Source: Candidatus Omnitrophota bacterium (GTDB lineage Bacteria > Omnitrophota > Omnitrophia > Omnitrophales > Aquincolibacteriaceae). From it: DNA of 64,000 bases. The stretch spans positions 56,348 through 120,347 of the forward strand of contig JAUYMS010000046.1 of NCBI GenBank assembly GCA_030698625.1, given 5' to 3'. Below are positions 4,436 through 30,578 of this stretch, in pieces (positions within the stretch are counted from its first letter, which is position 1; each line of letters starts with the position of its first letter). Position numbers and translations under genes: made by a program. Below the pieces are notes generated by a model. That model was not told the origin of the DNA, ran no database searches, and was given only the letters and a program-made list of their open reading frames with translations.

Positions 4436-4439
4436 GAGC

Positions 4440-5432: not shown

Positions 5433-5438
5433 AATACC

Positions 5439-6350
5439 TTAGCCGGGTTGAATTAGGTTTCTGATTTTGGCAAGGATGCGGGCGACGGTCGGCGTGCCAT
5501 TGTCGAGATGCGGGGCAAATCCCGCGGATCGATCCTCAAGTCCAAGCGTGTGAACGGGCACGGAAGTCTTCAACATCAACTCATGCGCGATTGATCGGGA
5601 AGGACCCGAGATTTCAAAATCAGAATCCAAGACAAGGCCGAGTCCTGTTTTTTTGAGCGAAGCAATCATGGTTTCCGAAATCGTGAACGGTTTTAACCAA
5701 AGGAGATGAATGAGATCGCATCGAATCCCTTCGCCATCGAGTTTCTTTATGGCCTCAAGGGCATTCAGTCTCGTCGCGCTGATCGCGATCAGCGTGATTT
5801 TCGCATCGGCTTCTATCGTGTCATTCATTTCGTAATCAATAGGAAAACTGCGGCGATGCTCGCTGATGTATAGCGGGTCATCGTGATCCATAAACGACTG
5901 CCAGGCTTCAAGCCACTCGCCGGGCGTCATGGGAGCGCAGACCGGCATGCCGGGCATGTGCATAACGAGGCCGTGGTGACTGGCGCTCGCGACAGGACCA
6001 ATGCCGCCCTCCATGGCGATGGATCGGATGAGAATGGGGCAGGGGACATTCCACATGTCCTTGGATTTTGCCGCGTAGTTAACGAGCGGCGCCGCGTTAT
6101 ACCACATGAACCCCTGGTAACGAATGACGTAAATAGGTCTGCGTCCGACGAGTGCCGCACCGACCGCAATGCCCGAACCAGAGACATCGGCCATGGAGAG
6201 CTCGACGATACCCTCTTCTTCGGTCATTTCAGGAACGGTCCCGCCAATCCACCCGACAGCTGTCACGCATTGGCCGAATAGAAGACCGTTGTTTTCCTTC
6301 AAATGTTTGCGCGTTGTCTCGCCTATTGTTTGCGCAACTGTTCTTGCCAT
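5439..6350 (-). CDS. TPP-dependent 2-oxoacid dehydrogenase E1 beta subunit-like (transketolase C-terminal type)
   Basis: 303 aa with E1-beta/transketolase pyrimidine-binding and C-terminal domains; directly follows E1-alpha gene; 28-nt overlap. Confidence 0.7.
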   Translation of the reverse strand: MARTVAQTIGETTRKHLKENNGLLFGQCVTAVGWIGGTVPEMTEEEGIVELSMADVSGSGIAVGAALVGRRPIYVIRYQGFMWYNAAPLVNYAAKSKDMWNVPCPILIRSIAMEGGIGPVASASHHGLVMHMPGMPVCAPMTPGEWLEAWQSFMDHDDPLYISEHRRSFPIDYEMNDTIEADAKITLIAISATRLNALEAIKKLDGEGIRCDLIHLLWLKPFTISETMIASLKKTGLGLVLDSDFEISGPSRSIAHELMLKTSVPVHTLGLEDRSAGFAPHLDNGTPTVARILAKIRNLIQPG

Positions 6351-7993
6351 AAGCTTTCCATGCTTTCGCGTGCCGCAGTTTCTATTTTCTTCACTTCAGT
6401 GGCCAGACCCAGTGTCTTGAGCTTCTTCTTAAAGAGTTCGAATCGGTTCCACTCCGGGGCGCCGTCGTTGCCTGTGCCCGCATGCCAGAGATGCCGGCAT
6501 GTCCTGATATTGATAAATGCGGGCAGGGTGTTGAGAAACTTTTCGACATAATGCGCAATAAGCCAGGGATCATCGGCTATATCCACGGCCTTCATGCCGA
6601 GAGACTCACAGACGTCTGCCATGCTCCAGGAACGTCTCTTCTCCACCTTAGTCAGAATCGAAAGATCGTTGTCTTCACAGATAAAGAGAACGGGAATTTT
6701 TTTTGTGGCGGCATAACCCATCGCGCCATAGACGTAATCTTCCTCGACAGAAGCGTCGCCGGTCACGGCCAGCACATTTTTACCGGAGCCCAAGGCCGCG
6801 CCAACCGCGATCGGCACCTGATCGCCCATTAACCCGCTGTGACCAAACATGCCGATTCTCGGATCGTGAATGGATGCCGATCCTCCCATGCCCCTTGCGC
6901 ATCCCGACTCACGATGCAACAACTCATCGATCAGCGCCTTAGGGTCACCGCCGAATGACAGGTAGTAGGAATGGCAACGGTGCTGTGCAAAGATCATGAA
7001 GTCGGTGGCGACCGTCGCGATGGCGGCGGGAATGTGTTCTTGGCCGACTGAAAGATAGATGGGCATCTTCATGAGTTTCTTGTCATAAGCCTTGGCCGCT
7101 TCAATTTCAAAGTATCGGTTGATGCAGGTCTGGCGAAAGATGTCCAGCGTCTTAGGAACGGAAAAACTCTTCGAGAGTCCTTTGATAAGGCCCAGTTCCG
7201 GACCGCGATCTCGGGTGGTCGAATTTCTGGTCCGTTCCGTACGTCTTTCTTGGGCGGTCTGGGCCGCTCGGTCATGTTTATCTTTCTGAATAGTCAGCAA
7301 TGTCATGCCCCGCGGGGCAGGGAAGACGGAGGCGACGCGGACCAGACTGTCGAGAGAACCGACTTCGCCCGGGCCGACCAAGACCTCACCTTTTTCGCTC
7401 GTGAGCGCTCCGCCGAGCACAGCAATGGTGTCGTCTCCCGGTCTCTTTTTTAGAAGCGAAAGGTCGGAAAGTTTTTCAATCATGATGATTCTGCCTTGAA
7501 CGTGATAGGCGTTGGGCTTTCCTTCCAGCGGCTGTTTGAAACGAATATACTCCTCTGGGATTGCTTCCATCTTGTCTTCGCCTTCATACGGCTTTCCCTG
7601 GCGCCCGTACTGATCCTGAAACCGGACGAGGTTGTCCTTGTCGCCGGCGGTCTCCACCTCCAGTAAAATGGCGCCCCCTTGCGATACGGCCTTTGTCGAA
7701 TGGAAAAGTCCTGGGCGAATAATGAGTTTGGTGACGGCCGACAGATGGGTGCTGTCCTTTAAAAATGAAATGTCGACCTCTCCTGCGAGGACAATCATTC
7801 CCGTCTTTTTGGTTGGGTGGCAGTGGAGGGAAGTCGCCGCCCCATACCGGATATGGAGATACCAGATGGCGACCTCATCGTTCTGGAAAATAAGGTACTC
7901 GTATCCCCACGGTTTGTTGACGATCACATTCTGGAAATCAACTTTATCCATAGGGCTACTCAGAACTCGAGTTAAGAAGTTGTTTGATCGCAT
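6323..7993 (-). CDS. Fusion protein: N-terminal PMI-type cupin domain + C-terminal TPP-binding E1 alpha subunit
   Basis: N-terminus KPWGYEYL...HCHP...LLEVETAGDKDNLVRFQDQYGR resembles the ManC/PMI type II C-terminal cupin; low-complexity linker; C-terminus has E1-alpha motifs (GMGGSASIHD, GDQVPIAVGAALG, TGDASVEEDYVYGAMG). Confidence 0.7.
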   Translation of the reverse strand: MRSNNFLTRVLSSPMDKVDFQNVIVNKPWGYEYLIFQNDEVAIWYLHIRYGAATSLHCHPTKKTGMIVLAGEVDISFLKDSTHLSAVTKLIIRPGLFHSTKAVSQGGAILLEVETAGDKDNLVRFQDQYGRQGKPYEGEDKMEAIPEEYIRFKQPLEGKPNAYHVQGRIIMIEKLSDLSLLKKRPGDDTIAVLGGALTSEKGEVLVGPGEVGSLDSLVRVASVFPAPRGMTLLTIQKDKHDRAAQTAQERRTERTRNSTTRDRGPELGLIKGLSKSFSVPKTLDIFRQTCINRYFEIEAAKAYDKKLMKMPIYLSVGQEHIPAAIATVATDFMIFAQHRCHSYYLSFGGDPKALIDELLHRESGCARGMGGSASIHDPRIGMFGHSGLMGDQVPIAVGAALGSGKNVLAVTGDASVEEDYVYGAMGYAATKKIPVLFICEDNDLSILTKVEKRRSWSMADVCESLGMKAVDIADDPWLIAHYVEKFLNTLPAFINIRTCRHLWHAGTGNDGAPEWNRFELFKKKLKTLGLATEVKKIETAARESMESLWQEQLRKQ

Positions 7994-8621
7994 TTGAATT
8001 TCTTAACTCGGCAAGCGACGCGAGCACTTCGTCAGCTCCGGTCAAATACTGTTCCTTCATAGTGGTACATAAGGCGATGCAGTAGGCGCCCGCCTTTTTG
8101 GCCGACTCAACGCCGAGCGGCGCATTTTCGATCACGATACAGTTTTCCGGTTTTATGCCCAATTTTTCCGCTCCGCGCAGATAAGGGTCTGCCGCAGGTT
8201 TTCCCTGTTTGGTGTCATCACCTGTGACCACGGCATTAAACTTATCGAGAAAGCCGGAGGGAACCGAACGCGCCAATCTGTCTTTGAGTGCGGCGGTAAC
8301 CACCGCGATCGGAACCTTTTTCGATATCAGCGTATCAAGCAATGCGTCAACCTCCGGATATAGGGCAAAACGATGATGTTCCAGATAATAGGCTTCTTTC
8401 TTGCGAACGACCTCGGCGGGATCAGGCGTCTTATGCGCGTGTTTCGAGAAAATCCGTTCCGGGATCTCATAAACGCGCAAACCCTCTAGGGGATAATAAT
8501 CTTCGGGCTGGATCGTTATGCCGTAATCCGACACTGCGGCTTTCCATGCCTCAAAATTATCTTCCATGGTCATCGCCAAAACCCCGTCAAAATCAAAAAG
8601 GATCGCATGAAATTTAATCAC
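7956..8621 (-). CDS. HAD-superfamily hydrolase (beta-phosphoglucomutase/phosphatase-like, subfamily IA)
   Basis: Track ORF trimmed to GTG (VIKFHAILFDFDGVLA...); DxDGV motif I, GDDTKQGKP motif. Confidence 0.6.
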   Translation of the reverse strand: MIKFHAILFDFDGVLAMTMEDNFEAWKAAVSDYGITIQPEDYYPLEGLRVYEIPERIFSKHAHKTPDPAEVVRKKEAYYLEHHRFALYPEVDALLDTLISKKVPIAVVTAALKDRLARSVPSGFLDKFNAVVTGDDTKQGKPAADPYLRGAEKLGIKPENCIVIENAPLGVESAKKAGAYCIALCTTMKEQYLTGADEVLASLAELRNSNAIKQLLNSSSE

Positions 8622-8632
8622 TTTAAACCCTG

Positions 8633-9163
8633 CTATACCTTTGCAGCTGCCCTTTTTTCGACCAATGCCAGTGCTTCCTTCATCCACGGGCCAAGGTGCT
8701 TATAGTGAGGGCATGAAACGATGTTGGCGTCTACAACAGCCGGCCCATCAACATAAGTCGCACCGGCATTGTTGATATCGTCTTTGATGCTGTAGTAACC
8801 GGAGATCTTTCGTCCCTTCACGACTTTTGCCGAGATCAAGAGCTGCGCGGCATGACAGATACTCGCGATGACTTTTCCGGTTGCATTGAAGTCTGAGATG
8901 ATCTTCAGGATTTCGGTGTCCTGGCGCATATATTCCATCGCCTTGGCGCCGCCTGGTAATATAAGAATGTCATAATCGTCGATTTTTACGTCCGGGATAT
9001 CGAGGGTCGGTACGATCTTAGAACCGATAATGCCGAGCACCAGTTCCTTTCCCCGGACCGCCACGTCCACTTCGTAACCTTCTTCCTGCACCCGGTAGTA
9101 GGGGTAGATGTACTCATGATCCTGAACAAGCTTTCCGGTAAGAATGAGTGCCCGTCTTTTCAT
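8633..9163 (-). CDS. DJ-1/PfpI family protein
   Basis: 176 aa; nucleophile elbow SICHAAQLL typical of PfpI/DJ-1. Confidence 0.65.
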   Translation of the reverse strand: MKRRALILTGKLVQDHEYIYPYYRVQEEGYEVDVAVRGKELVLGIIGSKIVPTLDIPDVKIDDYDILILPGGAKAMEYMRQDTEILKIISDFNATGKVIASICHAAQLLISAKVVKGRKISGYYSIKDDINNAGATYVDGPAVVDANIVSCPHYKHLGPWMKEALALVEKRAAAKV

Positions 9164-9180
9164 GGCTAGTGTCTCCGTTT

Positions 9181-10179
9181 CTATTGTGTTCCGCGCGGGG
9201 AGCTGCCTTTAGCGGCTTCCGGAGCCGGAAAATGTTTTCGGTACCAGGCCAGCGTCCTTTCAATGCCGATGTCCAAGGATGTCTCCGGCGTCCAGTCGAA
9301 GACATCCTTGGCCCGGTCGATGCTGACCTTTAATTTGAATCCTATGCTGGGTTTGGAATGGTCGTATTCAATTGTTAACTTACGCCCGGAATGCTCGATG
9401 ATCTTTTCCACGAGCCGGGTTACGGATATCGATTCTCCGGAACCGACATTGACGAGCTCAAAGGGCTGCTCCTGATTCTCAATCGCGAGGGCCATAAAAT
9501 TAACAAGATCTTCCACGTAAAGAAAATCGCGCTCGTCCGACCCGTCGCCCCAGACGACGACCTTACCGTCTTTGGCCGACATGACCTTGGCCATTGTGGC
9601 ACCAAAAACATGTGCCGTTTCCAGGTCAAATTTGTCGCGGGGCCCATAGATGTTCGTATGGCGAATCACGGTAAATTTCGTCGGGCTGATGCGCGAATAA
9701 AATTCGCACATCTTCTCATTGTAGACCTTCGTCCAACCTACTCCGAAATATTTATCGATCATTTCACCGTTAAAATCCTCTTCCTTGACCGGAGCATCCT
9801 GCTCTTTGTACATGGTTGTGCAGCTTAGGAAAACCACATGCTTGATTTTCGCTTCGTAGCAGGCCCTCAGGATATGCGCATTCATAACCGCGTTATCGGT
9901 AACGTGAAGGTAAGGTTTGTTGATGATGACATTGGCCCCGGAAGTCGTGGCAGCCGCCTGAATCACAATATCTTTTCCCTGAATAGCGCGCGCGGCATCT
10001 TCGGGGTTTCTGAGATCAGCATGAATGAATTCCACCGGCCCTTTCTGATTGTTGATCAGAGGCGGGACCTTGCGGTATGTGGCGAAGAGCTCAAAGGCCG
10101 TGTCTCCAAGGAATCTCTCCACCAAACTTCTTCCTATAAATCCGGTACTTCCGCAAACGAGGACTTTTTGCCTTTTCAT
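9181..10179 (-). CDS. NAD-dependent nucleotide-sugar epimerase/dehydratase (extended SDR)
   Basis: Start set to MKRQKVLVCGSTGFIGRSL (ATGA overlap with upstream gene); YxxxK region and SDR fold. Confidence 0.65.
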   Translation of the reverse strand: MKRQKVLVCGSTGFIGRSLVERFLGDTAFELFATYRKVPPLINNQKGPVEFIHADLRNPEDAARAIQGKDIVIQAAATTSGANVIINKPYLHVTDNAVMNAHILRACYEAKIKHVVFLSCTTMYKEQDAPVKEEDFNGEMIDKYFGVGWTKVYNEKMCEFYSRISPTKFTVIRHTNIYGPRDKFDLETAHVFGATMAKVMSAKDGKVVVWGDGSDERDFLYVEDLVNFMALAIENQEQPFELVNVGSGESISVTRLVEKIIEHSGRKLTIEYDHSKPSIGFKLKVSIDRAKDVFDWTPETSLDIGIERTLAWYRKHFPAPEAAKGSSPRGTQ

Positions 10180-11159
10180 TCTTCTCTCACTCTCCGGCGC
10201 CATTCGTCCAGCAGGTGAATGACGCTCTCTTCGAAATCGATTTTGGGTTCCCAACCGGTTGCCTTGTGAAACTTATCCGTATTGGGAATTTGAAGTGTCA
10301 CATCAGCCGGTCTCAGAAGAGCCGGGTCCTGCCGTGAAGGAATCTTCTTCTTCGCATGCTTTTTGAGGAGCTCCAAAAAATCACCTACGGAAATCGTTTT
10401 CTTACCACCGATATTATAAACCTCGCCCGGCTCACAATGTAAAATAGCGATCCAATAAGCCTCCATGGCGTCGCGGACGTCGATGAGGGTGCGGATGGAA
10501 TCCAAGTTGCCGTGTAAGAGCTCTTTCTGCAGTCCTGCCTCGATGCGAGCCACCTGCCTGGCGAAGGATGTCGCGAAGAGGTCAGTCCGCCGCGGATTGA
10601 TGTAGGCAAACATGCGCGTCCGGATCATCTTCATCCCGTAGCTTCTATAATAAGTCCACGCCAGCTGGTCTTGAGCCGTTTTTGAGACGGCATAAGGGCT
10701 TGAAGGACAGATGGGACAGTCTTCGGTGATTGGGACATTCTTGGGGTCTACCTGTCCGTAAACTTCTGAGGTGGAACAGTGCTGGATGATGGGGTTGAGT
10801 TTGAGGATGCGTATCGCCTCAAACAGATTGAGTGTTCCCATGATATTGTTTTCCATCACGGCGCGCGGGTAGAGAAAAGAAGCCCGCACATTGGCATTCG
10901 AAGCGAGGTGAAAGATGACGTCGGGTTTTACCTTCTCCAGCACTCCGAGTACGGAAGAGAGGTCGTTCAAATCACATTCATGCAGGCGGCATTTGTCTTT
11001 GACAGCCGCAAGATTTCGCGGGGCGCTCGTGCTGTGCCACCGCATAATACCGTGAATTTCAACTTTCTGATTCTGGGCCAGATACTCAGCCAGGTAGCTT
11101 CCGCCCGATCCGGAAATTCCCGTTATCAATGCCCGTTTAATTTTTTTTGCATCGATCAT
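10176..11159 (-). CDS. gmd: GDP-mannose 4,6-dehydratase family (GDP-sugar 4,6-dehydratase)
   Basis: KRALITGISGSGGSYLAEYL matches the Gmd N-terminus (ALITGITGQDGSYLAEFLL); GNLDSIRTLIDVRD resembles the Gmd GNLDAKRDWG region. Confidence 0.6.
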   Translation of the reverse strand: MIDAKKIKRALITGISGSGGSYLAEYLAQNQKVEIHGIMRWHSTSAPRNLAAVKDKCRLHECDLNDLSSVLGVLEKVKPDVIFHLASNANVRASFLYPRAVMENNIMGTLNLFEAIRILKLNPIIQHCSTSEVYGQVDPKNVPITEDCPICPSSPYAVSKTAQDQLAWTYYRSYGMKMIRTRMFAYINPRRTDLFATSFARQVARIEAGLQKELLHGNLDSIRTLIDVRDAMEAYWIAILHCEPGEVYNIGGKKTISVGDFLELLKKHAKKKIPSRQDPALLRPADVTLQIPNTDKFHKATGWEPKIDFEESVIHLLDEWRRRVREE

Positions 11160-11215
11160 AAGAGACTCTTCTAAGCAGTTTCATTCTCTCGAAAGACGTT
11201 TAAACGTTTTCGGTT

Positions 11216-12199
11216 TTAAGCTGTTTTATTTTTTCTGAAAACGTTATAGCGTTTACCGATTTTGTCGCGATTTTCGCGGAACCAATCCATGACTTCTTTG
11301 ATCCCATCCTCAATGGAGATCTCGGGCTCGAACCCGAGTTCTCTCATTCGCGATGTATCCATCAAGCGTTTTTGATCGCCCGAAGGTTTGGAAGTATCCC
11401 ATTCGATTTCAGGTCGTGGGTCTGTATTGCGCGAAATGATCTCAACGATTTCGCTGATCTTGACGCCTTGACCGCTTCCGAGATTGACGGGTTGCAGTGC
11501 CGGCTTTTCAAGCGCGGCGATCATGCCGCGGGCGACATCGCGGGCGTGAATAAAGTCCCTCACGGCAGTGCCGTCGCCCCAAACCTTCAGGGGGTTTTCT
11601 CCGTCAAGTGCCCGGCGAATTAAAGTGGGAATCACCATGGCATTTTCGGGGTCAAAGTTGTCATACGGCCCATAGACGTTCGCGGGCCGGACGATGACGA
11701 CATCTTTCCAGTCGTACTCAATGCGATAGGCTTCAGCCTGCAGCTCACCCATGCGTTTTGCCCAGCCGGCAAATCGATCATGTTCGGACGGAAACGTTTT
11801 CCAGACATCGTCTTCATGAAAGACCTCAGCCGGTGCATAGACGCCAATCGTGCTGGTGTAAAGATACCGCTTTACGCCGGACTGGCGCGCGGCCTCCATC
11901 ATATTGGTGTTGAAGGTGATGGTGGGGACGAAGAAGCTCGCAGGCTTCTTGGCGGTCATTGCCGGCGATCCCTTGATTCCGGCAAGATGGAACACGTAAT
12001 CCATATCTTCGCAGGCTTCCAGGCAGTGGTTCAGGTACATGAGGTTTTTTTGAATGAACTCGGCCTTCGGGTGAGCGCGCGAGGGATCGTCCAGGGAAAC
12101 GATGGTCACTTGTGCGCCCCGCTCCAAGAGGAGTTCCACGAGAGGTCTTCCGATCAGCCCCGTCCCGCCTGTTACAAGCACCCGCTTATCTTTAAACAC
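11216..12199 (-). CDS. GDP-L-fucose synthase/ColC-like SDR epimerase-reductase (second copy)
   Basis: Paralog of 4440-5432; start likely GTG at 12197-12199 with an AGGAGA RBS overlapping the stop of the upstream E1-beta gene (track ORF extends to 12238). Confidence 0.65.
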   Translation of the reverse strand: MFKDKRVLVTGGTGLIGRPLVELLLERGAQVTIVSLDDPSRAHPKAEFIQKNLMYLNHCLEACEDMDYVFHLAGIKGSPAMTAKKPASFFVPTITFNTNMMEAARQSGVKRYLYTSTIGVYAPAEVFHEDDVWKTFPSEHDRFAGWAKRMGELQAEAYRIEYDWKDVVIVRPANVYGPYDNFDPENAMVIPTLIRRALDGENPLKVWGDGTAVRDFIHARDVARGMIAALEKPALQPVNLGSGQGVKISEIVEIISRNTDPRPEIEWDTSKPSGDQKRLMDTSRMRELGFEPEISIEDGIKEVMDWFRENRDKIGKRYNVFRKNKTA

Positions 12200-12207
12200 G
12201 CTATCTC

Positions 12208-13263
12208 CTAAAAGGGACCCTTGAAGCGATTTTCCCAAGAATAAAAACTTTCACCGGAAAGATCTGTTTCGTCTAATCCAAGCATCTGTTCAACCGTGCG
12301 AATGATAGTGACGGCTGAGGGATAAAATAAATTCTCAAGCGGACGAGTCGTCGGGCAGGGTGTGTGAGCGAAGCCCAGGCGTTTGACCGGAGATTTCAGA
12401 TCTCCAAAACAGGCCTCGGAAACCTGCGCAGCGACCTCAGCGCCGAATCCGCAAAAGGCCCAGTCGTAGTCTGCCACGATACAGCGCTTCGTTTTTTTTA
12501 CGGAATCGATAATGGTAGCAGAGTCAAGCGGGGCCAGCGTTCGGACATCGACGATCTCGACCGATACGTTTCGCTTCTCCAGGACCTCACGCGCCTTCAG
12601 GGCCTCGACCATCATCCACGAAGTCGTCACGATGCTTACGTCTTTACCCTCGCGTTTCACTAGGGCCTTTCCGAGCGGGATCTTAAAGTTAAAATCGACA
12701 TCGCCATAGGCGTCATAAAGCCAGCGGTGCTCCAGGACAATAACCGGATCGTCGTCTTGAACGGCAGACCGCAGCAGGCTGTAGGCGTCTTGCGGGTTCG
12801 TGGGCATAACGACCTTAAGGCCCGGGATATGGGCAAAAACGCTCTGCATGGTTTTACTGTGTTGGGCGCCTTGGCCCCAGCCACGACCGATGACGGCACG
12901 GATCACAATCGGGAGTTTGAGTTTTCCTCCTGAGAGATACCTGGCGCATGAGATCATGTTAGCGATCTGATTCATAGCGAGCATCATGAAATCAACACGG
13001 ATATGGACATGGACCGGCCGTAGTCCGCTGATGGCCGCACCGAGGGCCAGACCCGTCATCGCATCTTCAGATAGGGGAGTGGAAAAACAGCGCCTTGGGC
13101 CGAATTTCTCAACGAGCCCGACCGTGCTTCCAAAGATCCGTTTGTGGTCGGCGACATCCAAACCGTAGACGAAGACCTTGTCGTCGGCTTGCATTTCGTC
13201 GACAAGCGCGCGATTCAGCGCTTCTTTGAATTGGATCTGGGTTTTTATGGCGCTCTCCGACAT
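12208..13263 (-). CDS. TPP-dependent 2-oxoacid dehydrogenase E1 beta subunit-like (second copy)
   Basis: 351 aa E1-beta/transketolase C-terminal architecture. Confidence 0.7.
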   Translation of the reverse strand: MSESAIKTQIQFKEALNRALVDEMQADDKVFVYGLDVADHKRIFGSTVGLVEKFGPRRCFSTPLSEDAMTGLALGAAISGLRPVHVHIRVDFMMLAMNQIANMISCARYLSGGKLKLPIVIRAVIGRGWGQGAQHSKTMQSVFAHIPGLKVVMPTNPQDAYSLLRSAVQDDDPVIVLEHRWLYDAYGDVDFNFKIPLGKALVKREGKDVSIVTTSWMMVEALKAREVLEKRNVSVEIVDVRTLAPLDSATIIDSVKKTKRCIVADYDWAFCGFGAEVAAQVSEACFGDLKSPVKRLGFAHTPCPTTRPLENLFYPSAVTIIRTVEQMLGLDETDLSGESFYSWENRFKGPF

Positions 13264-13271
13264 GGTTTCGC

Positions 13272-14462
13272 TTAGTTGATGTCGTTTAATAGCGAACAGA
13301 GTTTCTTGATCTTGCTCACTTCAAGGTCCGGATAATTACCGATATAAAAACCGAGAAAATGGATCAGCTCCACCTGCGGGTACTTATCAAACTGGTCGCC
13401 GACAAGATGCCTCAAATACGGCTGACGCAATTGATTGCCACCACCGGATAAACCGCGGCGGTACTCCACACCGCAATCGCCGAGCAGAGTTGTCACCTGA
13501 TTGACCCGGTCTTTGAAAGATTCTTGAAGCACTAGGGTGAAGGCATAGTTGCTTGCGCCTTCGACCTCAAAATCGGCCCGGTACTTTTTGGGGTCCAGGG
13601 AGCTCAAAAATATGTTCAGGTTGTAATTTCTTTGCTCGATCTCTTTTTCCAGGCGAGGCAGATGATGGCGGCCGATCACCGCATTTATTTCAGTGCTGCG
13701 CACATTGTAAGCGGGAAAGGCGAATATGAATTCCGGGTTCAGGTCTTTGTGTCGGGTCGCATAGAAAGACTTAATTTCCTCAGAGGTTGATTCCCGCACC
13801 AGACCGTGCGAGCGTAACATACGTACTGTCTGATACACCTTTTCGTCATTTGTGCAGACCATACCGCCTTCTATCGTGCTCAGGTGATGTGCGTAATAAA
13901 AGGAAAAGTTTGAGGCCCAGCCGTGAGAACCCACCCGCTTGCCCTTGAATGTGGCGCCGTGCGATTCACAGGCGTCCTCGATTAGGGGAATGCCCCGTTC
14001 TTTTAAACCGTCGATGAGACGGTCCGTCAGAGCGTTATAACCAAGAATATGTGTCAGAAAGACGGCCTTCGTATTCGGGGTGATTTTTTTAAAGACTTCC
14101 TCATCGTCGAGGCCGAGTCGGCGAGGGTGAATATCCGCAAAGACGGGTTGGAAGCCGCATTGAAAAACCGCGGCAATATCGGAAACCCAGGTGAGCGGGG
14201 GGACGATGATTTCACCCGGCCCGAAGATCTCGCGCAATGCTGCAAGCGTCAAAAGATTGGCCGAAGAGCCTGAATTAACGAACACGCTATAGCGTACCCC
14301 GACCCACTCGGCCCATTCGCTCTCAAATTGTTGCACTTCCTCAGACTGAGTCAAACGCGGATTTCCCTTTAAAAAACGAATGACGGCATTGATGTCGTCT
14401 TTAGAAATATTATTACTCATAAGCGGCCAGTTCAGGCCGGAAGGTTTTTCAGAGACGGTCAT
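13272..14462 (-). CDS. DegT/DnrJ/EryC1 family PLP/PMP enzyme of the sugar 3-dehydratase type (ColD/E1-like, His replaces the Schiff-base Lys)
   Basis: 396 aa DegT-family fold; the FSF..K lysine position reads NFSFYYAHHLSTIEGG, the signature of ColD/E1/SpnQ 3-dehydratases; no C-terminal Fe-S Cys motif, so ColD-like. Confidence 0.6.
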   Translation of the reverse strand: MTVSEKPSGLNWPLMSNNISKDDINAVIRFLKGNPRLTQSEEVQQFESEWAEWVGVRYSVFVNSGSSANLLTLAALREIFGPGEIIVPPLTWVSDIAAVFQCGFQPVFADIHPRRLGLDDEEVFKKITPNTKAVFLTHILGYNALTDRLIDGLKERGIPLIEDACESHGATFKGKRVGSHGWASNFSFYYAHHLSTIEGGMVCTNDEKVYQTVRMLRSHGLVRESTSEEIKSFYATRHKDLNPEFIFAFPAYNVRSTEINAVIGRHHLPRLEKEIEQRNYNLNIFLSSLDPKKYRADFEVEGASNYAFTLVLQESFKDRVNQVTTLLGDCGVEYRRGLSGGGNQLRQPYLRHLVGDQFDKYPQVELIHFLGFYIGNYPDLEVSKIKKLCSLLNDIN

Positions 14463-14464
14463 GG

Positions 14465-15433
14465 TTAACTTAACACTCCTGTGTAGAGGTCATCGATTCC
14501 GGGAAAGGCGTCTGTCCGCGCCTTTGCGACACTCGCATCTATTTCCTTGTCAATGTCCGCCGCAATTTTCTCTAACGCCGCTTCCTTTGCCCCCAAGCCG
14601 AGCACCCAGTCTTTGGCCGCCAGTACGGGGTCCACGGCCTCGAGTTCCGCGGCGCTCGGTTTGGGCCGGTAGCCGGCCGCATAATCCAGCCGAACACCGA
14701 CATGGCTGCGAAAGCGATGATACTCGCATTTTAGAAAGCCAGGCTTCCCATCCTTGGCCATTTTGGCCAAAAGTCCTGTGGCGGCTTCGTGGATCAAGTC
14801 GACTCGGTGCCCTGGCGCTTCACCGTAGTGACATTCGAATCCTGCGACCGCGTCTTTCGCTGAACGGAATCCTTGCCGCTCTTTCTTGCCGGTGTGAATG
14901 GCCAGGTTATTGTCTTCGCAGACAAAGAGAACAGGGAGTTTGTGGAGGGAAGCAAAGTTGATGCTTTCCCAGAAAGCGCCTTCCTCCATGGCGCCGTCAC
15001 CGAAAAAACTCGCGACAACATTTTTCTTGTTCTGATAAACATTTGCGAATGCCGCACCGACCGCAACAGGGATTGTGGTGGCAACCACCGCTGACGTCAG
15101 AAGCAGGCCGCGTTCAGGTGCCGTCAAATGCATGGAACCCGCTTTGCCGTGGGCACAACCCGTGACTTTGCCGTAAAGTTCCGCAAAGAAGGTATCGGTA
15201 TCTCCCGTCAGCATAAGGTAATGGGCGTGGTTGCGGTAGGTTCCGAATACCTGGGGCGAACTCCCGAGAGCTGCGATTACGCCGACGGCAATGGCCTCAG
15301 CTCCGATGTGCAGGTGCACAGGGGTTTTGATCTCATCAGTGGCATATTCGGAGCAGATTCTATCCTCACACTTGCGGATGAGGAGAATCTTGTGATAAAA
15401 CTGGATGGCGTTTTTCGCGGAAAGCCGGCTCAC
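14465..15433 (-). CDS. TPP-dependent 2-oxoacid dehydrogenase E1 alpha subunit-like (second copy)
   Basis: 322 aa; GSMH and FFGDGAMEEGAFWESINFA TPP-binding motifs. Confidence 0.7.
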   Translation of the reverse strand: MSRLSAKNAIQFYHKILLIRKCEDRICSEYATDEIKTPVHLHIGAEAIAVGVIAALGSSPQVFGTYRNHAHYLMLTGDTDTFFAELYGKVTGCAHGKAGSMHLTAPERGLLLTSAVVATTIPVAVGAAFANVYQNKKNVVASFFGDGAMEEGAFWESINFASLHKLPVLFVCEDNNLAIHTGKKERQGFRSAKDAVAGFECHYGEAPGHRVDLIHEAATGLLAKMAKDGKPGFLKCEYHRFRSHVGVRLDYAAGYRPKPSAAELEAVDPVLAAKDWVLGLGAKEAALEKIAADIDKEIDASVAKARTDAFPGIDDLYTGVLS

Positions 15434-16428
15434 TGGAAATTGTTGGGTTCATAGATGACGATTTTGCTTCCCGTAAAATCCAATCGGAAATTCACATGAA
15501 TCAAATCCTTAAGCTTTTCACGAATTTCGGGTTGGCGATCGGGTCGCGCGAATAAAAGCATAAAACCTCCGCCGCCTGCACCCAGGAGTTTCCCCCCGTA
15601 GGCACCGGCGCTCTTGGCGGCTTCATAGATCGTATCCAGTGCCGGTGTGGTCACCTTATCGGATAAAGATCGCTTGTACTGCCAATATTCATGTAGGAGC
15701 TTCCCGAAGTTTTCTATCGGAATCTTCGGATTAATCAGAATCTCCATGCCTTCTTTGGCCATCTGCTGCATAATTTGCATCTCCCGCTTACGTGCTTCCA
15801 TGTTTGCGATGTGATGCTTTGCGATTTCGGAGGCGATGCGCGTAAATCCCGTGAAGACCAGCATCATATGTTTCTGAAAATCCTCGATGCGGTCTTTGGC
15901 CAAGATGAGCGGGGTGATATCAAAACTATCGTCAGCATGAAACTGAATGACGTTCAGACCACCGTGAGTCGTGAGTACTTGATCCTGGGAACCGACATGC
16001 TCCTTGAGAATATCCTGCTCCATGTGAACCGCCTCGGTGGCCAGATCCTTCTTGGAAATCATCTGCCCCTTGAGAGCATGGATGGCGTGGATCAGCCCCA
16101 CCGTGAATGAAGAACTAGATCCCAATCCGGAGCGAGCCGGCAGATCCCCGTCATGGTGGATTTCCAGGCCATTTTTGACGTCCATGGTATTCAAGATGCC
16201 GCGCACGGCAGGGTGCTTGATGTCCTTAACTTCATTGACTGAATCGATTTGCGAGTAAACGATGCGGTGCTTGAAGTCGAAGAAGGGGGGCAAATACCGG
16301 CAGCTTATGTAGCAAAACTTATCAATGGTTGAGCCGAGCACCATACCGCCATATTTGCGGTACCAAGCAGGATAATCGGTGCCTCCGCCAAAAAACGAAA
16401 TTCGAAAAGGTGTCCTACTGACAATCAT
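15430..16428 (-). CDS. GHMP-family sugar kinase (heptose-7-phosphate kinase HddA-like)
   Basis: RISFFGGGTDYP and PARSGLGSSSSF GHMP motifs. Confidence 0.65.
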   Translation of the reverse strand: MIVSRTPFRISFFGGGTDYPAWYRKYGGMVLGSTIDKFCYISCRYLPPFFDFKHRIVYSQIDSVNEVKDIKHPAVRGILNTMDVKNGLEIHHDGDLPARSGLGSSSSFTVGLIHAIHALKGQMISKKDLATEAVHMEQDILKEHVGSQDQVLTTHGGLNVIQFHADDSFDITPLILAKDRIEDFQKHMMLVFTGFTRIASEIAKHHIANMEARKREMQIMQQMAKEGMEILINPKIPIENFGKLLHEYWQYKRSLSDKVTTPALDTIYEAAKSAGAYGGKLLGAGGGGFMLLFARPDRQPEIREKLKDLIHVNFRLDFTGSKIVIYEPNNFQ

Positions 16429-16604
16429 ACCGTAATTTTCGTCTTATACCGCGTTAGGCTTAAGTGGAATAAGATACACCATTTAGGACAAAAAGACCAA
16501 GCGAAATTGGGGAAGGCTGATACTCTTCAGTCGCTCCCAGTTCTCTACAGGAAAAGCGTACCACATTGTGGGTGATTGTGTTAGATGCGGAAGGAAATAG
16601 TCGT

Positions 16605-17276
16605 TTAGGAGAAGCGCTCTGCGGCGATGAGGCGGAGGATGTCCATGCCATTAATGAGAGGGTTCATTTTTCGCACCCCGCCGATGCGGGCGGGTTCGTC
16701 GCCCGGGATTTCGCCTGTGTTGAGCTTGTGTTTGGCACAGCGAATAGACAGAAGCGGCTCAAAACCGGCACGCGGCACGCTGGTCTCAAGCTTCAGCATC
16801 GGCATGAGCGACATTCGCCAAGCCCGAAACATGACCAGTGAATCCGTATAGTGCCCTCCAAAAATGACATTGATCATGCGGGTAAACATCCAGTTGCCGA
16901 ACGCTGTGACGGGATCGTCATCCTCGCTCTTGGCGCCGTCCAGGTATCGCGAAACGACAACCATGTCGAAACCTTCCTTCATCTTGCTGACCAGATCGGG
17001 GATACGTTCCGGCACTGAATTCCCGTCGGGGCTGAAAGCGAGGCAAATATCCGTCTTTACGTGGGGGAGTCCCTCTTGATAGGCGCCCGTAATGCCCTTT
17101 GTCCGGGTCTGATGGACGATTTTATACCCCTGATCCTGTGCATATTCGAGTGTTCCGTCTGTCGATCCGCCGTCGACAAAGAGAATCTCATCCACCCATT
17201 CACGTTTGACGAGGGGCATGACGGCCTTCATTCCGGTGATCTCATTGAGTGTGGGTACGAATAATGTAACGCTCAC
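16605..17276 (-). CDS. Family 2 glycosyltransferase, polyprenyl-phosphate sugar synthase (DPM1)-like (second copy)
   Basis: GTG start overlapping the upstream stop (GTGA); paralog of 3770-4435. Confidence 0.7.
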   Translation of the reverse strand: MSVTLFVPTLNEITGMKAVMPLVKREWVDEILFVDGGSTDGTLEYAQDQGYKIVHQTRTKGITGAYQEGLPHVKTDICLAFSPDGNSVPERIPDLVSKMKEGFDMVVVSRYLDGAKSEDDDPVTAFGNWMFTRMINVIFGGHYTDSLVMFRAWRMSLMPMLKLETSVPRAGFEPLLSIRCAKHKLNTGEIPGDEPARIGGVRKMNPLINGMDILRLIAAERFS

Positions 17277-18028
17277 TTGAAAAACTCCTTTATAACTTCA
17301 AGGGATGTTTTTCGAAGTTCCGGCAAGACCGCTACCGCTTTATCTATGACAATGTTGCCGACACGATAATCGAACTCGCCGAAGCGAACGCGTTTGCGCA
17401 CAATATCGGCGAGTTCGGCCATGTGAATATTTTTATTCGAAGCGATATTATAAATTCCTTGTAGGTTCTGATCCAGAGCCTTTTGAATAAAACGAGATAC
17501 GGTGGAATGCGTCACGAAGTTGCATTCGGAGTCAGGCGTCAAACTCAACACCGGCTCTTTATCTTCGAAGATTTTTTTCAGATTTCCCTTTTTAGCATGT
17601 TGACCGAGAAGGCCCGCGCAGCGAATGATGAGGTGATTGGGTGTGTTGACGCGAACAATGGTCTCTGAGACGATCTTGGCCACAGAATAGGGATTTTCGT
17701 GGCTTTCCACATCCAGTGTTTCCTCCTCGCTGTGGGAGACCTCGTTTTTCGGGTAGACCTCGGTGGACGAGATGTAGACGAATTTCTTGTGAGGAAGAGC
17801 TGTTAATTTTTGAGTTAACATGACATTGTCTTCCAGGTAAGCGGGGAGAGTCTCCGGTGAGACCTTGCCTGTGGCATTGAATGCGGCGTGAATGATGAGA
17901 TCAACTCCTTCTTTCGCGAGTTTTTCCAGGAGTTCGGCGCTGTTTTCACGGCTGAGCCCGTAACCGCCAAAAACCTCATAGAGATGCCTTCCCAGGCCCT
18001 GTGCGACGCCGGTTGTGAGTACATTCAT
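17273..18028 (-). CDS. NAD(P)-dependent oxidoreductase, short SDR-type sugar reductase
   Basis: 251 aa; TGVAQGLGRHL Rossmann-like N-terminus; assignment by context and fold-level similarity only. Confidence 0.45.
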   Translation of the reverse strand: MNVLTTGVAQGLGRHLYEVFGGYGLSRENSAELLEKLAKEGVDLIIHAAFNATGKVSPETLPAYLEDNVMLTQKLTALPHKKFVYISSTEVYPKNEVSHSEEETLDVESHENPYSVAKIVSETIVRVNTPNHLIIRCAGLLGQHAKKGNLKKIFEDKEPVLSLTPDSECNFVTHSTVSRFIQKALDQNLQGIYNIASNKNIHMAELADIVRKRVRFGEFDYRVGNIVIDKAVAVLPELRKTSLEVIKEFFK

Positions 18029-18103
18029 GGTTGTCTATCATGTACGTCCGGCCCAGGTATTCCCTTAACTAAGAATGTCGCGTAAAATGTCGTTAGAGTA
18101 ATC

Positions 18104-19678
18104 ATGGGAATCCTATTCGCATCCTCTAGCCGGTTTCGCCTCAAAAACGAGAATGTTGTCGTTGCCATTCTTGCTGCGGCGCTTGTCATTCTCACGCTTC
18201 TTATCTGCAGCTCCGACCTGTCGAGTCATTCCATCTGGCTGGACGAAGCCGAGACGAGATTTAATGCGGATAAAGACAAGTCGGTCGGCGAGGTTGTGAA
18301 TATGTATACGCGCCGCGGTTCGCCCCCCCTCTACTTTCTTGTGATTCACGAGGTCCTGAAGATTCGTGATGACGAGATCAGTTTGAGGATGCCGTCTGTC
18401 ATTTTCGGGGCGGGGCTCATCTTAGCCGTTTTTCTCCTGGCCCGAAAGCTCTTCGGTAATGGCGTGGGGTTTTTTGCCGCGCTTGCATTTTTTCTTTCAG
18501 ATAAATTCCTGCATCATGCCCGCGACGCGAATCCCTACACGATGTACGCCTTTCTCACCACTTTATCGACCTACTGCCTTTGGTGTGCCTGGGAGACGAG
18601 GCGCAAAAAGGACTGGCTTATTTACGCCGCCGTTGCGCTCCTGGCAGTGGGCACACACCTGTTTGCCGTGCTGTTTGTATTTGGGCAGATGGTCACATAT
18701 TTGTTTCTTATCCGGTTCTGGGAAATTTTCAAAATGAAGTCGCGCGAAGAGCTGAAAGCCTTTATTGAAAAAGAAAAGTGTTACTTTGTTGTGGCGGGTG
18801 TTTTTGGTGTGATTTCCGCGGCTTGGTTACTTTTCTACTTTGCGTCCGCGGGATCACGCCCGACGCATCTGTATGAAGAGGTCGTCTCCGCCTCGTTCTG
18901 GTTAGGTCTGGCAAAGAGCGCGTATTTTGCTTTCTTCCCGTTAAAGCGGTATCTCGTCTTTATTGTGCTAGGGCTGGCCTACTACATAATTTCCGACAGA
19001 GAGAAGGGGGCCTATGTCACGGCTGTGGCCGTAGTTCCCGCAATCTTACAAATCGCCGCACTCAGTACGGGCGCCGAAACAGCACCGCGTTATTTCATTA
19101 CGACGGCGCCGCTGCTCTACATTGTGGCGGCCTCAAGCATTCGATTGGGGCAGGTCCTTGTGGAGAAGGCCCGCGTTCACAAAGCGGTAGGCATCGGAAT
19201 AACGATGGCAACTCTCTTATTCTTTGTTCAACCCATGGTTCTTTACAAAGACACCATGAATCAGATTCTGCACAAGACGCGGAACTACAGTTGGCGTCAT
19301 ACGGCACAGTTGCTGGACCATCATGCCACCGAGAACGACATCATCTTGGTCTGTGCCGATTACATGATGTTGCCCCTGGAGTATTATTATAAGGGGTCCG
19401 TAGAGAGAATAGGAATTGAGAAGGACAATGACGACCCCGCTTATTTTAATAGAGTTGTGGATGCCAATTTAATTGGCAAACAAAGGGTTTGGCTCATCCT
19501 CTCACACGTTCGAGGGGATCAGCCGATCGTCGATTATCTTAATCATTTTAAGAGGAAGCTTCGCACCCAAAGCGGGGCGGAGTTTACGATTATGACAAGG
19601 CAGGTAGGGTTTAATCCGATGGCGGACATCGCCATTGTGATTTACGAGCTGGGAATCGCACCTGAGGTAGGAACTTAA
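18104..19678 (+). CDS. Polytopic membrane glycosyltransferase of the GT-C type (ArnT/PMT-like, GT39/83-like)
   Basis: 524 aa, about 11-13 hydrophobic helices in the N-terminal two-thirds plus a soluble C-terminal domain; adjacent to DPM1-like GT2 genes, as in lipid-linked sugar transfer systems. Confidence 0.5.
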   Translation: MGILFASSSRFRLKNENVVVAILAAALVILTLLICSSDLSSHSIWLDEAETRFNADKDKSVGEVVNMYTRRGSPPLYFLVIHEVLKIRDDEISLRMPSVIFGAGLILAVFLLARKLFGNGVGFFAALAFFLSDKFLHHARDANPYTMYAFLTTLSTYCLWCAWETRRKKDWLIYAAVALLAVGTHLFAVLFVFGQMVTYLFLIRFWEIFKMKSREELKAFIEKEKCYFVVAGVFGVISAAWLLFYFASAGSRPTHLYEEVVSASFWLGLAKSAYFAFFPLKRYLVFIVLGLAYYIISDREKGAYVTAVAVVPAILQIAALSTGAETAPRYFITTAPLLYIVAASSIRLGQVLVEKARVHKAVGIGITMATLLFFVQPMVLYKDTMNQILHKTRNYSWRHTAQLLDHHATENDIILVCADYMMLPLEYYYKGSVERIGIEKDNDDPAYFNRVVDANLIGKQRVWLILSHVRGDQPIVDYLNHFKRKLRTQSGAEFTIMTRQVGFNPMADIAIVIYELGIAPEVGT

Positions 19679-19737: not shown

Positions 19738-21333
19738 TTACTCTGCTTTGACTTTCTTTTCTTTCGGTTTTTCGGTGATGGCACACTCGGTTGTCAATAA
19801 CAGGCCGGCAATGCTGACCGCATTTTCAATCGCGGTACGCGCTACCTTGGCCGGATCAATAACACCTGCCTTCACCAAATCTTCGAACTTGCCCGTCTGA
19901 GCATTGAAACCGAAGCCGCCGCTCCCTTCCAGAATCTTACGCACGACAACGGAACCGTCAGAGCCTGCATTTTCTGCAATGCGGCGTGCGGGTTCCTGAA
20001 GCGCGCGGCGAATAATCTGAACGCCGGTTGCTTCGTCGCCTTTTAGCTTGAGCGTATCGACGGCTGCGATGGCACGTAGAAACACCACTCCACCACCAGC
20101 AACGACACCTTCCTGTATGGCCGCGCGGGTTGCATGCAGTGCATCTTCCATGCGAGCCTTCTTCTCCTTCATTTCAACTTCCGTCGCGGCACCGACTTTA
20201 ATCACGGCAACGCCGCCTGAAAGTTTGGCGAGACGCTCTTGCAGCTTTTCCTTGTCATACTCGGAATCCGAGTTGGCAATCTGGCCCTTGATCTGCTCAC
20301 AGCGGGCCTTGATGTCCTTCTGCGAACCGGCTCCGCCGACGATGGTCGTATTGTCCTTATCGATGACAACGCGCTGGGCCGTTCCGAGACTGTCGGTATC
20401 AACATTCTCGAGTTTGACGCCTAGATCTTCGGAGATGAACTTTCCTTTGGTGAGGACCGCAATGTCGTCCATCAACTGCTTGCGACGATCTCCGAATCCG
20501 GGGGCCTTGACGGCGGCAACGTTCAGCACGCCGCGAAGCTTATTGACGACCAAAGTCGCTAACGCTTCGCCCTCGAGATCCTCGGAAATAATCAGAAGCG
20601 GCTTAGCGAGACGGGCCACCTTCTCAAGAAGGGGAACCAGATCCCGAATGGCCGAAATCTTCTTTTCGAAGAGAAGGATGAGCGGTTCTTTGAGAACAAC
20701 TTCCATTCTCTCTGGGTCGGTCACAAAGTACGGTGAGCTGTAACCCCGATCGAACTCCATCCCTTCGACGTATTCCAGTTCTGTGTTCAGGGTCTTAGAC
20801 TCTTCAACGGTAATGACGCCGTCTTTTCCGACCTTTTCCAAAGCTTCGGCAAGGAGAGAACCAATGGTAGTGTCACTGTTGGCACTGATTGTTCCAATGG
20901 CTTGAATATCTTCCTTGCCCTTGATGTTCTTAGCAGACTTCTTGATGGACTCGACGACTATCAGCAGAGCCTTATCGAGACCGCGCTTCAGAGACATCGG
21001 GTTGGCGCCAGCCGAAACATTCTTCAGGCCTTCTTCGATAATGGCCTGTGCGAGAACGGTTGCGGTCGTAGTTCCGTCGCCGGCCTCGTCAGAGGTCTTT
21101 TCGGAAACCTCGCGAACCATTTGGGCACCCATATTCTCATAGGGGTCCTTTAGCTCGATTTCCTTGGCGACGGTGACGCCGTCTTTTGTTATGGTAGGCG
21201 CGCCGAACTTACGATCGATGACAACATTGCGCCCGCGCGGACCGAGTGTAATTCCTACGGTCTTCGCGAGCGTGTCGACACCGCGCTTAAGCTTACGGCG
21301 TGCGGACTCAGAAAATACTAATGTTTTTGCCAT
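19738..21333 (-). CDS. groL: Chaperonin GroEL (copy 1, no Gly-Met tail)
   Basis: 531 aa canonical GroEL; ends KEKKVKAE. Confidence 0.92.
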
Positions 21334-21368
21334 AATGTGTGGCTCCTTTAGAGATTAGTCGGCAACGA

Positions 21369-21656
21369 TTATGCGTAAACAGCTAGGACTTCGCTCTCTT
21401 TGAGGATCTTATACTTCTTCCCCTCAACGAGGAGCTCATCACCCGCATATTTGCCAAAAATGATGCGGTCACCGGACTTCACTTCTAAAGGCTGAATTTT
21501 GCCTGACTCAAGTGCCTTACCGGGACCCACGGAAACGACCTTACCTTCGGTCTTTTCTTCCTTGGCGGTGTCCGGGAGAATAATGCCTCCCTTGGTCTTT
21601 TCATCGGATTCCAAAACTTCTACGAGGATCTTATCCCCTAACGGCTTAATCTTCAT
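21369..21656 (-). CDS. groS: Co-chaperonin GroES
   Basis: 95 aa canonical GroES. Confidence 0.92.
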   Translation of the reverse strand: MKIKPLGDKILVEVLESDEKTKGGIILPDTAKEEKTEGKVVSVGPGKALESGKIQPLEVKSGDRIIFGKYAGDELLVEGKKYKILKESEVLAVYA

Positions 21657-21713
21657 TTTTCACTCCTCCTATTAATTTAATTAAGGTAACTGGTTGAATT
21701 TATTTAGACGGTG

Positions 21714-23402
<1,689 letters not shown>

Positions 23403-28000: not shown

Positions 28001-28031
28001 AAACCTTGCGGGAAATGACGTTAGTTAAGGC

Positions 28032-30577: not shown

Positions 30578-30578
30578 A

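Follow-up and report, generated by a model that had tools for sequence, protein, structure and literature searches.

The key difference between sugar 3-dehydratases and sugar aminotransferases is the replacement of a lysine by a histidine (PMC8987622). ColD (WbdK) is the GDP-4-keto-6-deoxy-D-mannose 3-dehydratase of Escherichia coli O55 (2gms, 2r0t, 3b8x, 3gr9), and E1 (DdhC/RfbH/AscC) is the CDP-6-deoxy-L-threo-D-glycero-4-hexulose 3-dehydrase that works with E3. E1 and SpnQ hold a four-cysteine [2Fe-2S] cluster, while ColD has no such cluster (PMC8987622). In Campylobacter jejuni, a pyridoxal 5′-phosphate (PLP)-dependent C3-dehydratase acts on GDP-6-deoxy-4-keto-heptose (PMC10440746). Here we analyze a gene at positions 13272–14462 (minus strand) of a 64,000-nucleotide stretch of DNA from a Candidatus Omnitrophota bacterium (contig JAUYMS010000046.1; the whole stretch is called the window below), which we assign from its sequence and predicted fold to the ColD type of 3-dehydratase, and which lies between the genes for the two subunits of a putative thiamine diphosphate (ThDP)-dependent enzyme.

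Enzymes of the latter kind have also been tied to deoxysugar biosynthesis. The 3,6-dideoxy-4-keto sugars are acceptors for ThDP-dependent branching, as in yersiniose, erwiniose and caryophyllose (PMC9306805), and alpha-KADH2 enzymes, which are of the E1 alpha/beta type, are known or genetically implicated in two-carbon (C2) branching from pyruvate to deoxy-keto sugars, with examples in the aldgamycin, kosinostatin, kibdelomycin, paulomycin and avilamycin pathways (PMC12247030, PMC4802897).

A histidine occupies the Schiff-base lysine position

The gene is a complete open reading frame (ORF) with an ATG start and encodes a 396-aa protein, in which DegT_DnrJ_EryC1 (PF01041) covers residues 19–390 (226 bits, E 1.1e-66; Pfam). 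An AlphaFold 2 (AF2) model built from the family alignment reached a pLDDT of 96.8 and a pTM of 0.93. When this model was searched against the PDB with Foldseek, the top matches were ColD chains (TM-score 0.86–0.88), with GDP-perosamine synthase next, and the model superposes on ColD, PerA, PseC and ArnB at TM-scores of 0.80–0.88. By its full-length profile match and predicted fold, the protein, hereafter the dehydratase, is a member of the DegT/DnrJ/EryC1/StrS superfamily.

Residues 185–200 of the dehydratase read NFSFYYAHHLSTIEGG, with His192 and His193 encoded by CAT CAC at 13884–13889 on the minus strand (His192 codon, 13889–13887). Among proteins of solved structure, E. coli ColD, deposited in four forms, matches best by sequence, with E values from 3.5e-49 (2gms) to 1.6e-47, and the alignment with 2gms runs without gaps through the motif (FSFYYAHHLSTIEGG versus FSSFYSHHIATMEGG in ColD), placing His192 in the column of ColD His188. 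The engineered ColD forms H188N (3b8x), H188K (2r0t) and S187N/H188K (3gr9) depart from the wild type opposite His192, and the next-best PDB match, the genuine sugar transaminase 7b0d, sets a lysine at this position (FSFYPTKNLGAYGDGG). An earlier note on this DNA had described a DegT-family enzyme with histidine at the PLP-lysine position and had proposed alignment with ColD and E1 as the way to check it. The match of the His192 column to both ColD His188 and the 7b0d lysine bears this description out, and a MAFFT alignment of the dehydratase, ColD, E1 and 7b0d returned the same column for His192. The note had taken the His-His pair as the replacement; of the two, the first histidine is the lysine substitute but the second is not, and ColD and E1 also carry HH.

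To describe conservation, full-length representatives of 50%-identity clusters, all with an E value of 1e-48 or better, were aligned with MAFFT (125 sequences). The His192 column is histidine in 125/125 of these sequences and the next column in 110/125. Since His192 is invariant among its relatives, chance or sequencing error is excluded as its origin. No lysine is conserved at 90% or more at any position of a 91-sequence family alignment, so there is no alternative Schiff-base lysine, and the finding that the earlier note had named as fatal to its reading, a conserved lysine at the Schiff-base site, did not appear. The dehydratase thus lacks the lysine of the S-x-x-x-x-K motif that marks sugar aminotransferases, and has the histidine-for-lysine replacement of the NDP-sugar 3-dehydratases (ColD/E1/SpnQ class). 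From this alignment, His192 is predicted to act as a general acid/base in place of the Schiff-base lysine.

Asp163, Ser187, His192, Glu198, Arg278 and Arg335, as well as Gly65, are invariant in the 91-sequence alignment, and Asn63, Ser64, Ser67, Ala68, Asn69, Glu162, Cys165 and Glu166 are conserved in at least 90% of it. The conserved SGSxAN phosphate loop, the Asp of EDxCES and the Ser before the motif are all present and align with ColD SSGSTANLL and EDNCES; these residues are predicted to bind the cofactor. Arg223, which at least 90% of the 91 sequences retain, and the invariant Arg335 align to two ColD arginines that probably contact the GDP pyrophosphate.

Assignment to the iron–sulfur-free type

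The earlier note had placed the protein in a ColD/E1/SpnQ class. That it is a His-type 3-dehydratase holds, but the three enzymes are not equivalent, and because the [2Fe-2S] insertion is absent, the dehydratase falls with ColD. The Cys-rich insertion of E1, taken from the 3bcx sequence, is WGRDCYCAPGCDNTC. The E1 insertion RDCYCAPGCDNTC has no counterpart in the dehydratase, which shares with ColD a short cysteine-free loop at this place. A regular-expression search for C.C..C..C gave no match in the dehydratase or in 109 relatives, and the genes of the cluster (1300–19678) include no ferredoxin-NAD(P) reductase-like ORF. Since it lacks the E1 insertion, the dehydratase would be of the ColD type, recycled by glutamate and working with no reductase partner; judged by sequence and model, it is an Fe-S-free enzyme.

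The note's further claim, C-3 deoxygenation rather than transamination, is supported by the invariant histidine, the lack of a conserved lysine and the best match to ColD, all of which speak to predicted chemistry. We consider the 3-dehydratase assignment itself very probable. The favored explanation as a whole, a ColD-type, Fe-S-free C-3 dehydratase with the mechanism and pathway proposed below, we regard as probable.

A widespread subfamily remote from ColD

Like ColD, the dehydratase is a fold-type I DegT protein of ∼390 aa, with an HH pair whose first histidine is in the lysine column, no Fe-S motif, the SGSxAN and EDxCES motifs and GDP-sugar genes alongside. Unlike ColD, it has Ala rather than Ser before the catalytic histidine. 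The locus also differs, in that it is not a colitose cluster, no ManB/ManC is present in the window, and the gene sits between thiamine-enzyme subunits with a heptose-kinase-like gene nearby. Identity to ColD is 31% over 377 aa (BLASTP), or 32% in the multiple sequence alignment (MSA), which is below orthologue level, and the clade of the dehydratase (at least 44% identity) lies apart from the ColD-like representatives, which are 50–54% identical to ColD. By these sequence comparisons, the dehydratase is not a ColD orthologue but a member of a large uncharacterized subfamily.

A search of a 90%-cluster database gave 8000 scored matches to the dehydratase, with close homologues of 60–70% identity found across phyla. 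At least 523 species-representative genomes contain a subfamily member, the carriers belonging to Omnitrophota, Verrucomicrobiota, Planctomycetota, Cyanobacteria, Binatia, Chloroflexota and various proteobacteria. These homologues are automatically annotated as ‘DegT family aminotransferase’ or, by JGI, as ‘CDP-6-deoxy-D-xylo-4-hexulose-3-dehydrase/E1’. The histidine-for-lysine signature and the enzyme class are already known; the interest lies in the context described below and in a conserved subfamily that is uncharacterized. Cultured carriers, including Gemmata algarum, Nodosilinea nodulosa PCC 7104 and Floridaenema, are a concrete place to test the prediction of a branched sugar.

Gene neighborhood in the window

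The dehydratase gene is part of a minus-strand cluster that extends from ∼1300 to 18028. As the earlier note had stated, it is located between E1-alpha and E1-beta genes, which Pfam and NCBIfam identify at 14465–15433 and 12208–13263, respectively. Only 2 nt separate the E1-alpha stop from the dehydratase start and 8 nt separate the dehydratase stop from the E1-beta start, spacers that indicate co-translation (translational coupling). The 322-aa alpha-like subunit resembles pyruvate dehydrogenase (PDH) E1 alpha (PF00676, E 1.2e-39; TIGR03182, 246.9 bits, cutoff 393.85), and its best PDB match is human PDH E1 alpha (4e-31), while the 351-aa beta-like subunit (PF02779, PF02780; NF006667, 317.7 bits, cutoff 321) matches 1ik6/3duf at about 1e-65. 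No lipoyl, E2 or E3 genes are found in the cluster or in the annotated related loci L002 and L004. That the two subunit genes flank the dehydratase gene could reflect a physical complex in which a labile enamine or 4-keto product is handed directly to the ThDP site.

Three cluster genes, all on the minus strand, precede the E1-alpha gene. The first in transcription order encodes a short-chain dehydrogenase/reductase (SDR) of the short kind (17273–18028), and the next a small family 2 glycosyltransferase (GT2; 16605–17276; PF00535) of the size of a polyprenyl-phosphate sugar synthase, which is kept at 44–74% identity in 14 related loci. The third is an HddA/WcbL-like GHMP sugar kinase (15430–16428; PF00288/PF08544; HddA 142.7 bits, cutoff 600) whose best PDB matches (4n3o, 3k85 and 4usk) are heptose-7-phosphate kinases, WcbL among them; it is closest to the D-glycero-D-manno-heptose-7-phosphate kinases.

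After the E1-beta gene, again on the minus strand, comes a GDP-L-fucose-synthase-like SDR (11216–12238; PF01370; GDPFucSynFcl 159 bits, cutoff 500), a candidate epimerase/reductase for the steps after the dehydratase and branching reactions. It is followed by an extended SDR of the GDP-sugar 4,6-dehydratase/4-reductase type (GMD/RMD/GDP-heptose dehydratase-like; 10176–11159; PF16363, E 6e-72), whose best PDB matches are 2pk3, a GDP-6-deoxy-lyxo-4-hexulose reductase (1e-56), and 7us5, the C. jejuni GDP-D-glycero-D-manno-heptose 4,6-dehydratase (1.5e-55). STSE and YxxxK motifs can be read in its translation, and this enzyme probably supplies the 4-keto-6-deoxy substrate.

A second GDP-fucose-synthase-like SDR (9181–10254, minus strand; Pfam, NCBIfam) is followed by a DJ-1/PfpI protein, a haloacid dehalogenase (HAD) phosphatase and a second two-subunit thiamine enzyme (5439–7993, minus strand; Pfam, NCBIfam) composed of E1-alpha-like (6323–7993) and E1-beta-like (5439–6350) proteins. 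The second E1-alpha-like protein is 556 aa long, and its ∼270 extra N-terminal residues appear cupin- or phosphomannose isomerase (PMI)-like by eye (KPWGYE...HCHP), although Pfam detects no such domain; its E1-beta-like partner has 303 aa. This second thiamine pair and the HAD and DJ-1/PfpI genes are kept at 64–75% identity in two related loci (L008, L013).

The 3′ part of the cluster begins with a further SDR and a further GT2. A HemN-like radical-SAM enzyme (471 aa, 2070–3485) and a PhyH-family dioxygenase (257 aa) then close the cluster at 1300–3485 on the minus strand, and these two genes hint that the sugar is additionally C-methylated and/or hydroxylated. Divergent from the cluster, on the plus strand, is a GT-C membrane glycosyltransferase (PMT_2/ArnT-like; 18104–19678; PF13231), which is probably the final transferase, acting on the membrane's outer face.

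Neighbors retained in other genomes

We compared 82 independent related loci, with upstream counts taken from the 69 loci that have at least 2.5 kb upstream. The most constant neighbor of the dehydratase family is the GHMP kinase, found in 63/69 loci, and an NTP_transferase gene lies next to the kinase in 41/69. Searches of the window for a nucleotidyltransferase and a GmhA-type isomerase, by tblastn with the related-locus versions and by Pfam analysis of the ORFs as far as 41.6 kb, found neither. Since the NTP_transferase of so many related loci is missing in and near the cluster here, the activating enzyme must be encoded elsewhere in the genome. GmhA-like SIS genes occur in 12 related loci, and a GMD-like gene occurs in 20/85 loci at the tblastn threshold.

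Thiamine enzymes are found near the dehydratase gene in two main forms. A full-length E1 alpha/beta pair is present in 30/69 loci, while in 22/69 a minimal pair, a 203-aa E1_dh protein and a 178-aa Transket_pyr protein, is placed directly upstream of the dehydratase (for example, L071 11581–12192 and L046 9439–9975). The minimal pair has no Transketolase_C domain, and this loss fits an E2-independent carboligase role. Neither type of pair is present in the remaining 17/69 loci, 2 of which have the second thiamine pair of the window. Only the window and the loci most closely related to it (L004/L005, L006 and probably L011) show the sandwich order alpha-dehydratase-beta, and the other loci have the order alpha-beta-dehydratase.

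Downstream of the dehydratase, the most frequent arrangement differs from that of the window. A B12-binding radical-SAM gene (∼511 aa) directly follows the dehydratase gene in 45/68 loci (for example, L068 6442–7977 and L002 11285–12832). The window has no such gene in this place, and its B12 radical-SAM gene, with 23% identity, is distant (31562–33211).

Proposed pathway and its relation to described systems

The scheme below is our inference as to which substrate is used, whether glutamate takes part, how the C2 branch arises and what becomes of the sugar. By homology with ColD and the Campylobacter C3-dehydratases, L-glutamate would convert the enzyme-bound PLP into pyridoxamine 5′-phosphate (PMP) (PMC8987622, PMC10440746). 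An NDP-4-keto-6-deoxy sugar would then condense through its C-4 carbonyl with PMP to give a ketimine, His192 would take the C-4′ proton as the 3-OH is expelled, and hydrolysis of the resulting enamine would give an NDP-3,6-dideoxy-4-keto sugar and ammonia. The GDP-linked substrate would be delivered by the GMD/GDP-heptose-dehydratase-like SDR, starting from either GDP-mannose or GDP-D-glycero-D-manno-heptose, the second being at least as likely as the first. The flanking E1 alpha/beta enzyme would add a two-carbon (acetyl) branch from pyruvate to the 3,6-dideoxy-4-keto product, which may then undergo SDR reductions, loading on polyprenyl phosphate by the GT2 and transfer by the GT-C enzyme.

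Because 3,6-dideoxy-4-keto sugars serve as ThDP acceptors and alpha-KADH2 enzymes carry out C2 branching, the dehydratase would be the supplier of the ketone. The likeliest role of the dehydratase is to provide a GDP-3,6-dideoxy-4-keto sugar, hexose or heptose, that is then C2-branched for the cell surface. For the pathway part of this proposal, in which the dehydratase product is the ketone that the flanking thiamine enzyme branches before the SDRs and export, we see about as much chance of its being right as wrong. As identity to ColD is only 31%, GDP-4-keto-6-deoxymannose, the substrate that the earlier note had proposed, is plausible but not established, and the neighbors point at least as strongly to GDP-6-deoxy-4-keto-heptose. 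GDP specificity is suggested by these neighbors and by GDP-perosamine synthase as the second-best match to the predicted fold.

Among described systems, the C. jejuni HS:5/HS:11 C3-dehydratase, which acts on GDP-6-deoxy-4-keto-D-lyxo-heptose, has the same predicted chemistry and also a GDP-linked sugar (PMC10440746). The cluster further resembles the C. jejuni heptose pathway in its HddA/WcbL-like GHMP kinase and 7us5-like dehydratase, but the Campylobacter pathway has no thiamine or radical-SAM enzyme. In the yersiniose pathway (E1/E3 with YerE and YerF), a 3-dehydratase product likewise feeds a ThDP-dependent C-branching enzyme (PMC9306805). Histidine replaces lysine in E1 as it does in the dehydratase, but the [2Fe-2S] Cys-rich insertion and the E3 partner of E1 are absent here. 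YerE is a single-chain, acetolactate-synthase-like flavoenzyme, while the ThDP enzyme of the window is a PDH-E1 alpha/beta heteromer, and yersiniose is CDP-linked, while the context in the window is of the GDP type.

The flanking genes share with alpha-KADH2 (KbDH-alpha/beta, Plm8/Plm9, AviB1/AviB2) a two-subunit E1 architecture with no E2/E3, a likeness drawn from architecture and published description, and they sit, as alpha-KADH2 genes do, inside a deoxy-keto-sugar cluster (PMC12247030, PMC4802897). By analogy, the flanking enzyme is predicted to be a carboligase. Known alpha-KADH2 enzymes belong to actinomycete antibiotic clusters and to dTDP-sugars from 2,3-dehydratases, whereas here a ColD-type 3-dehydratase is found in a cell-envelope glycan cluster (GT2 and GT-C) of an Omnitrophota metagenome-assembled genome (MAG). 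Unlike alpha-KADH2, the ThDP enzyme of many relatives is cut to the 203-aa and 178-aa subunits.

Alternative explanations

Several points weigh against this proposal. The function is transferred across a long distance, since the C. jejuni C3-dehydratases with proven activity are 62–67% identical to ColD (PMC10440746) and the dehydratase only 31%, and a literature search gave no assay of any subfamily member. The 17/69 loci in which no recognized thiamine enzyme lies nearby indicate that the coupling is frequent but not obligatory, and the lack of a nucleotidyltransferase and of GmhA in the window means that nucleotide and sugar are not fixed. In addition, the His-type enzyme SpnQ can transaminate under some conditions, namely when its reductase is absent (PMC8987622), and the dehydratase could by the same token be mainly a sugar 4-aminotransferase, or a dual-function enzyme like SpnQ without reductase, that yields a 4-amino-4,6-dideoxy sugar. 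Its overall fold and PLP-binding residues are those of sugar aminotransferases, and GDP-perosamine synthase ranks second among its structural matches. However, ColD and E1 had no transferase activity under the conditions used for SpnQ, and E1 gained it only as H220K (PMC8987622). With histidine throughout the lysine column, no other conserved lysine in the family and no N-acyl- or N-methyl-transferase gene adjoining the dehydratase gene, we find transamination quite unlikely as its main activity. An E1/RfbH/SpnQ-type enzyme, in which a [2Fe-2S] cluster and either E3 or a ferredoxin/flavodoxin reductase reduce a glucoseen intermediate, is highly improbable. Its HH pair is the same, RfbH (NF011936) is the best NCBIfam model and JGI uses the E1 name for homologues, but the RfbH score of 168.3 bits is far under the cutoff of 423, and the match to E1 is weaker than that to ColD (95.7 versus 170.9 bits; 26% versus 32% identity in the MSA). 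Given this score, the missing Cys-rich insertion and motif and the lack of a reductase-like gene in the cluster, the E1/RfbH identity implied by the NCBIfam and JGI names was rejected, and the ColD-type assignment would correct the automatic label ‘CDP-6-deoxy-D-xylo-4-hexulose-3-dehydrase (E1)’ on these proteins.

A different objection accepts a His-type PMP enzyme but gives it another substrate or chemistry, such as a keto-sugar phosphate or a ThDP-derived ketose, in which case the order of dehydration and then branching would be wrong. The distance from ColD allows for this, and the tightest partners of the subfamily are the kinase and the ThDP enzyme, while the GMD-like gene is much less constant; the frequent B12 radical-SAM gene after the dehydratase and the missing nucleotidyltransferase of the window point the same way. 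Against it stand the NTP_transferase gene of 41/69 related loci, the GDP-sugar dehydratase-like SDR 2 kb away in the same operon, the alignment of Arg223 and Arg335 to two ColD arginines, and the fact that the characterized His-type members are all NDP-sugar 3-dehydratases (PMC8987622). On balance, we consider another substrate unlikely and retain the reading of the protein as a ColD-type NDP-sugar 3-dehydratase.

A possible branched-sugar module and other genes of the window

The pairing of a ColD-type 3-dehydratase and an alpha-KADH2-type ThDP enzyme is in line with established biosynthetic logic. To our knowledge, it has not been described in the GDP/heptose envelope-glycan context of these phyla, and no paper on this combination of genes came up in a literature search. 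From the linkage of the subfamily to a two-subunit thiamine enzyme and a kinase of the heptose type, we predict that environmental phyla about which little is known carry a family of branched 3,6-dideoxy sugars on their envelopes. The genes retained together, a heptose-type GHMP kinase, a nucleotidyltransferase, a two-subunit thiamine enzyme, a ColD-like 3-dehydratase and often a B12 radical-SAM enzyme, make up a module that hundreds of species possess, in phyla that include Omnitrophota, Verrucomicrobiota, Planctomycetota and Cyanobacteria. More tentatively, and with doubts that outweigh our confidence, this conserved module may make an undescribed C-branched and/or C-methylated 3,6-dideoxy higher-carbon sugar from GDP-heptose, exported via polyprenyl phosphate and the GT-C enzyme. 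If true, branching of the alpha-KADH2 type would be widespread in primary envelope glycans and not a specialty of actinomycete antibiotics.

A link to a 174.09-Da residue in the O-glycan of the S-layer of Kuenenia stuttgartiensis (PMC5088730) was considered and rejected as unsupported. By our own arithmetic, this residue, C8H14O4, is isomeric with a yersiniose-type or methyl-3,6-dideoxyheptose residue. The two loci with Candidatus Kuenenia stuttgartiensis in their titles (L035 and L058) both have 67% G+C and no thiamine enzyme, and the lead was dropped for these reasons. We presume that 67% G+C does not fit Kuenenia, so that the bins of these loci are probably contaminated or mislabeled.

Elsewhere in the window, a second group of genes for glycan modification (27119–33211) contains a GT2, a 596-aa protein with a HAD-type phosphatase domain, a polysaccharide deacetylase, a Methyltransf_24 methyltransferase and the distant B12 radical-SAM enzyme mentioned above. 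Two tandem GroEL paralogues of 531 and 554 aa, read from translations, lie on the minus strand at 19738–23378, only the second of which has a GGM-repeat tail, and a 95-aa ORF between them (21369–21656) may encode GroES. Tetrapyrrole genes on the plus strand (37888–41658) encode glutamyl-tRNA reductase, porphobilinogen deaminase and a fused uroporphyrinogen-III methylase/synthase, and are preceded by genes for a cytochrome c assembly protein and a response-regulator/GGDEF/MshEN protein.

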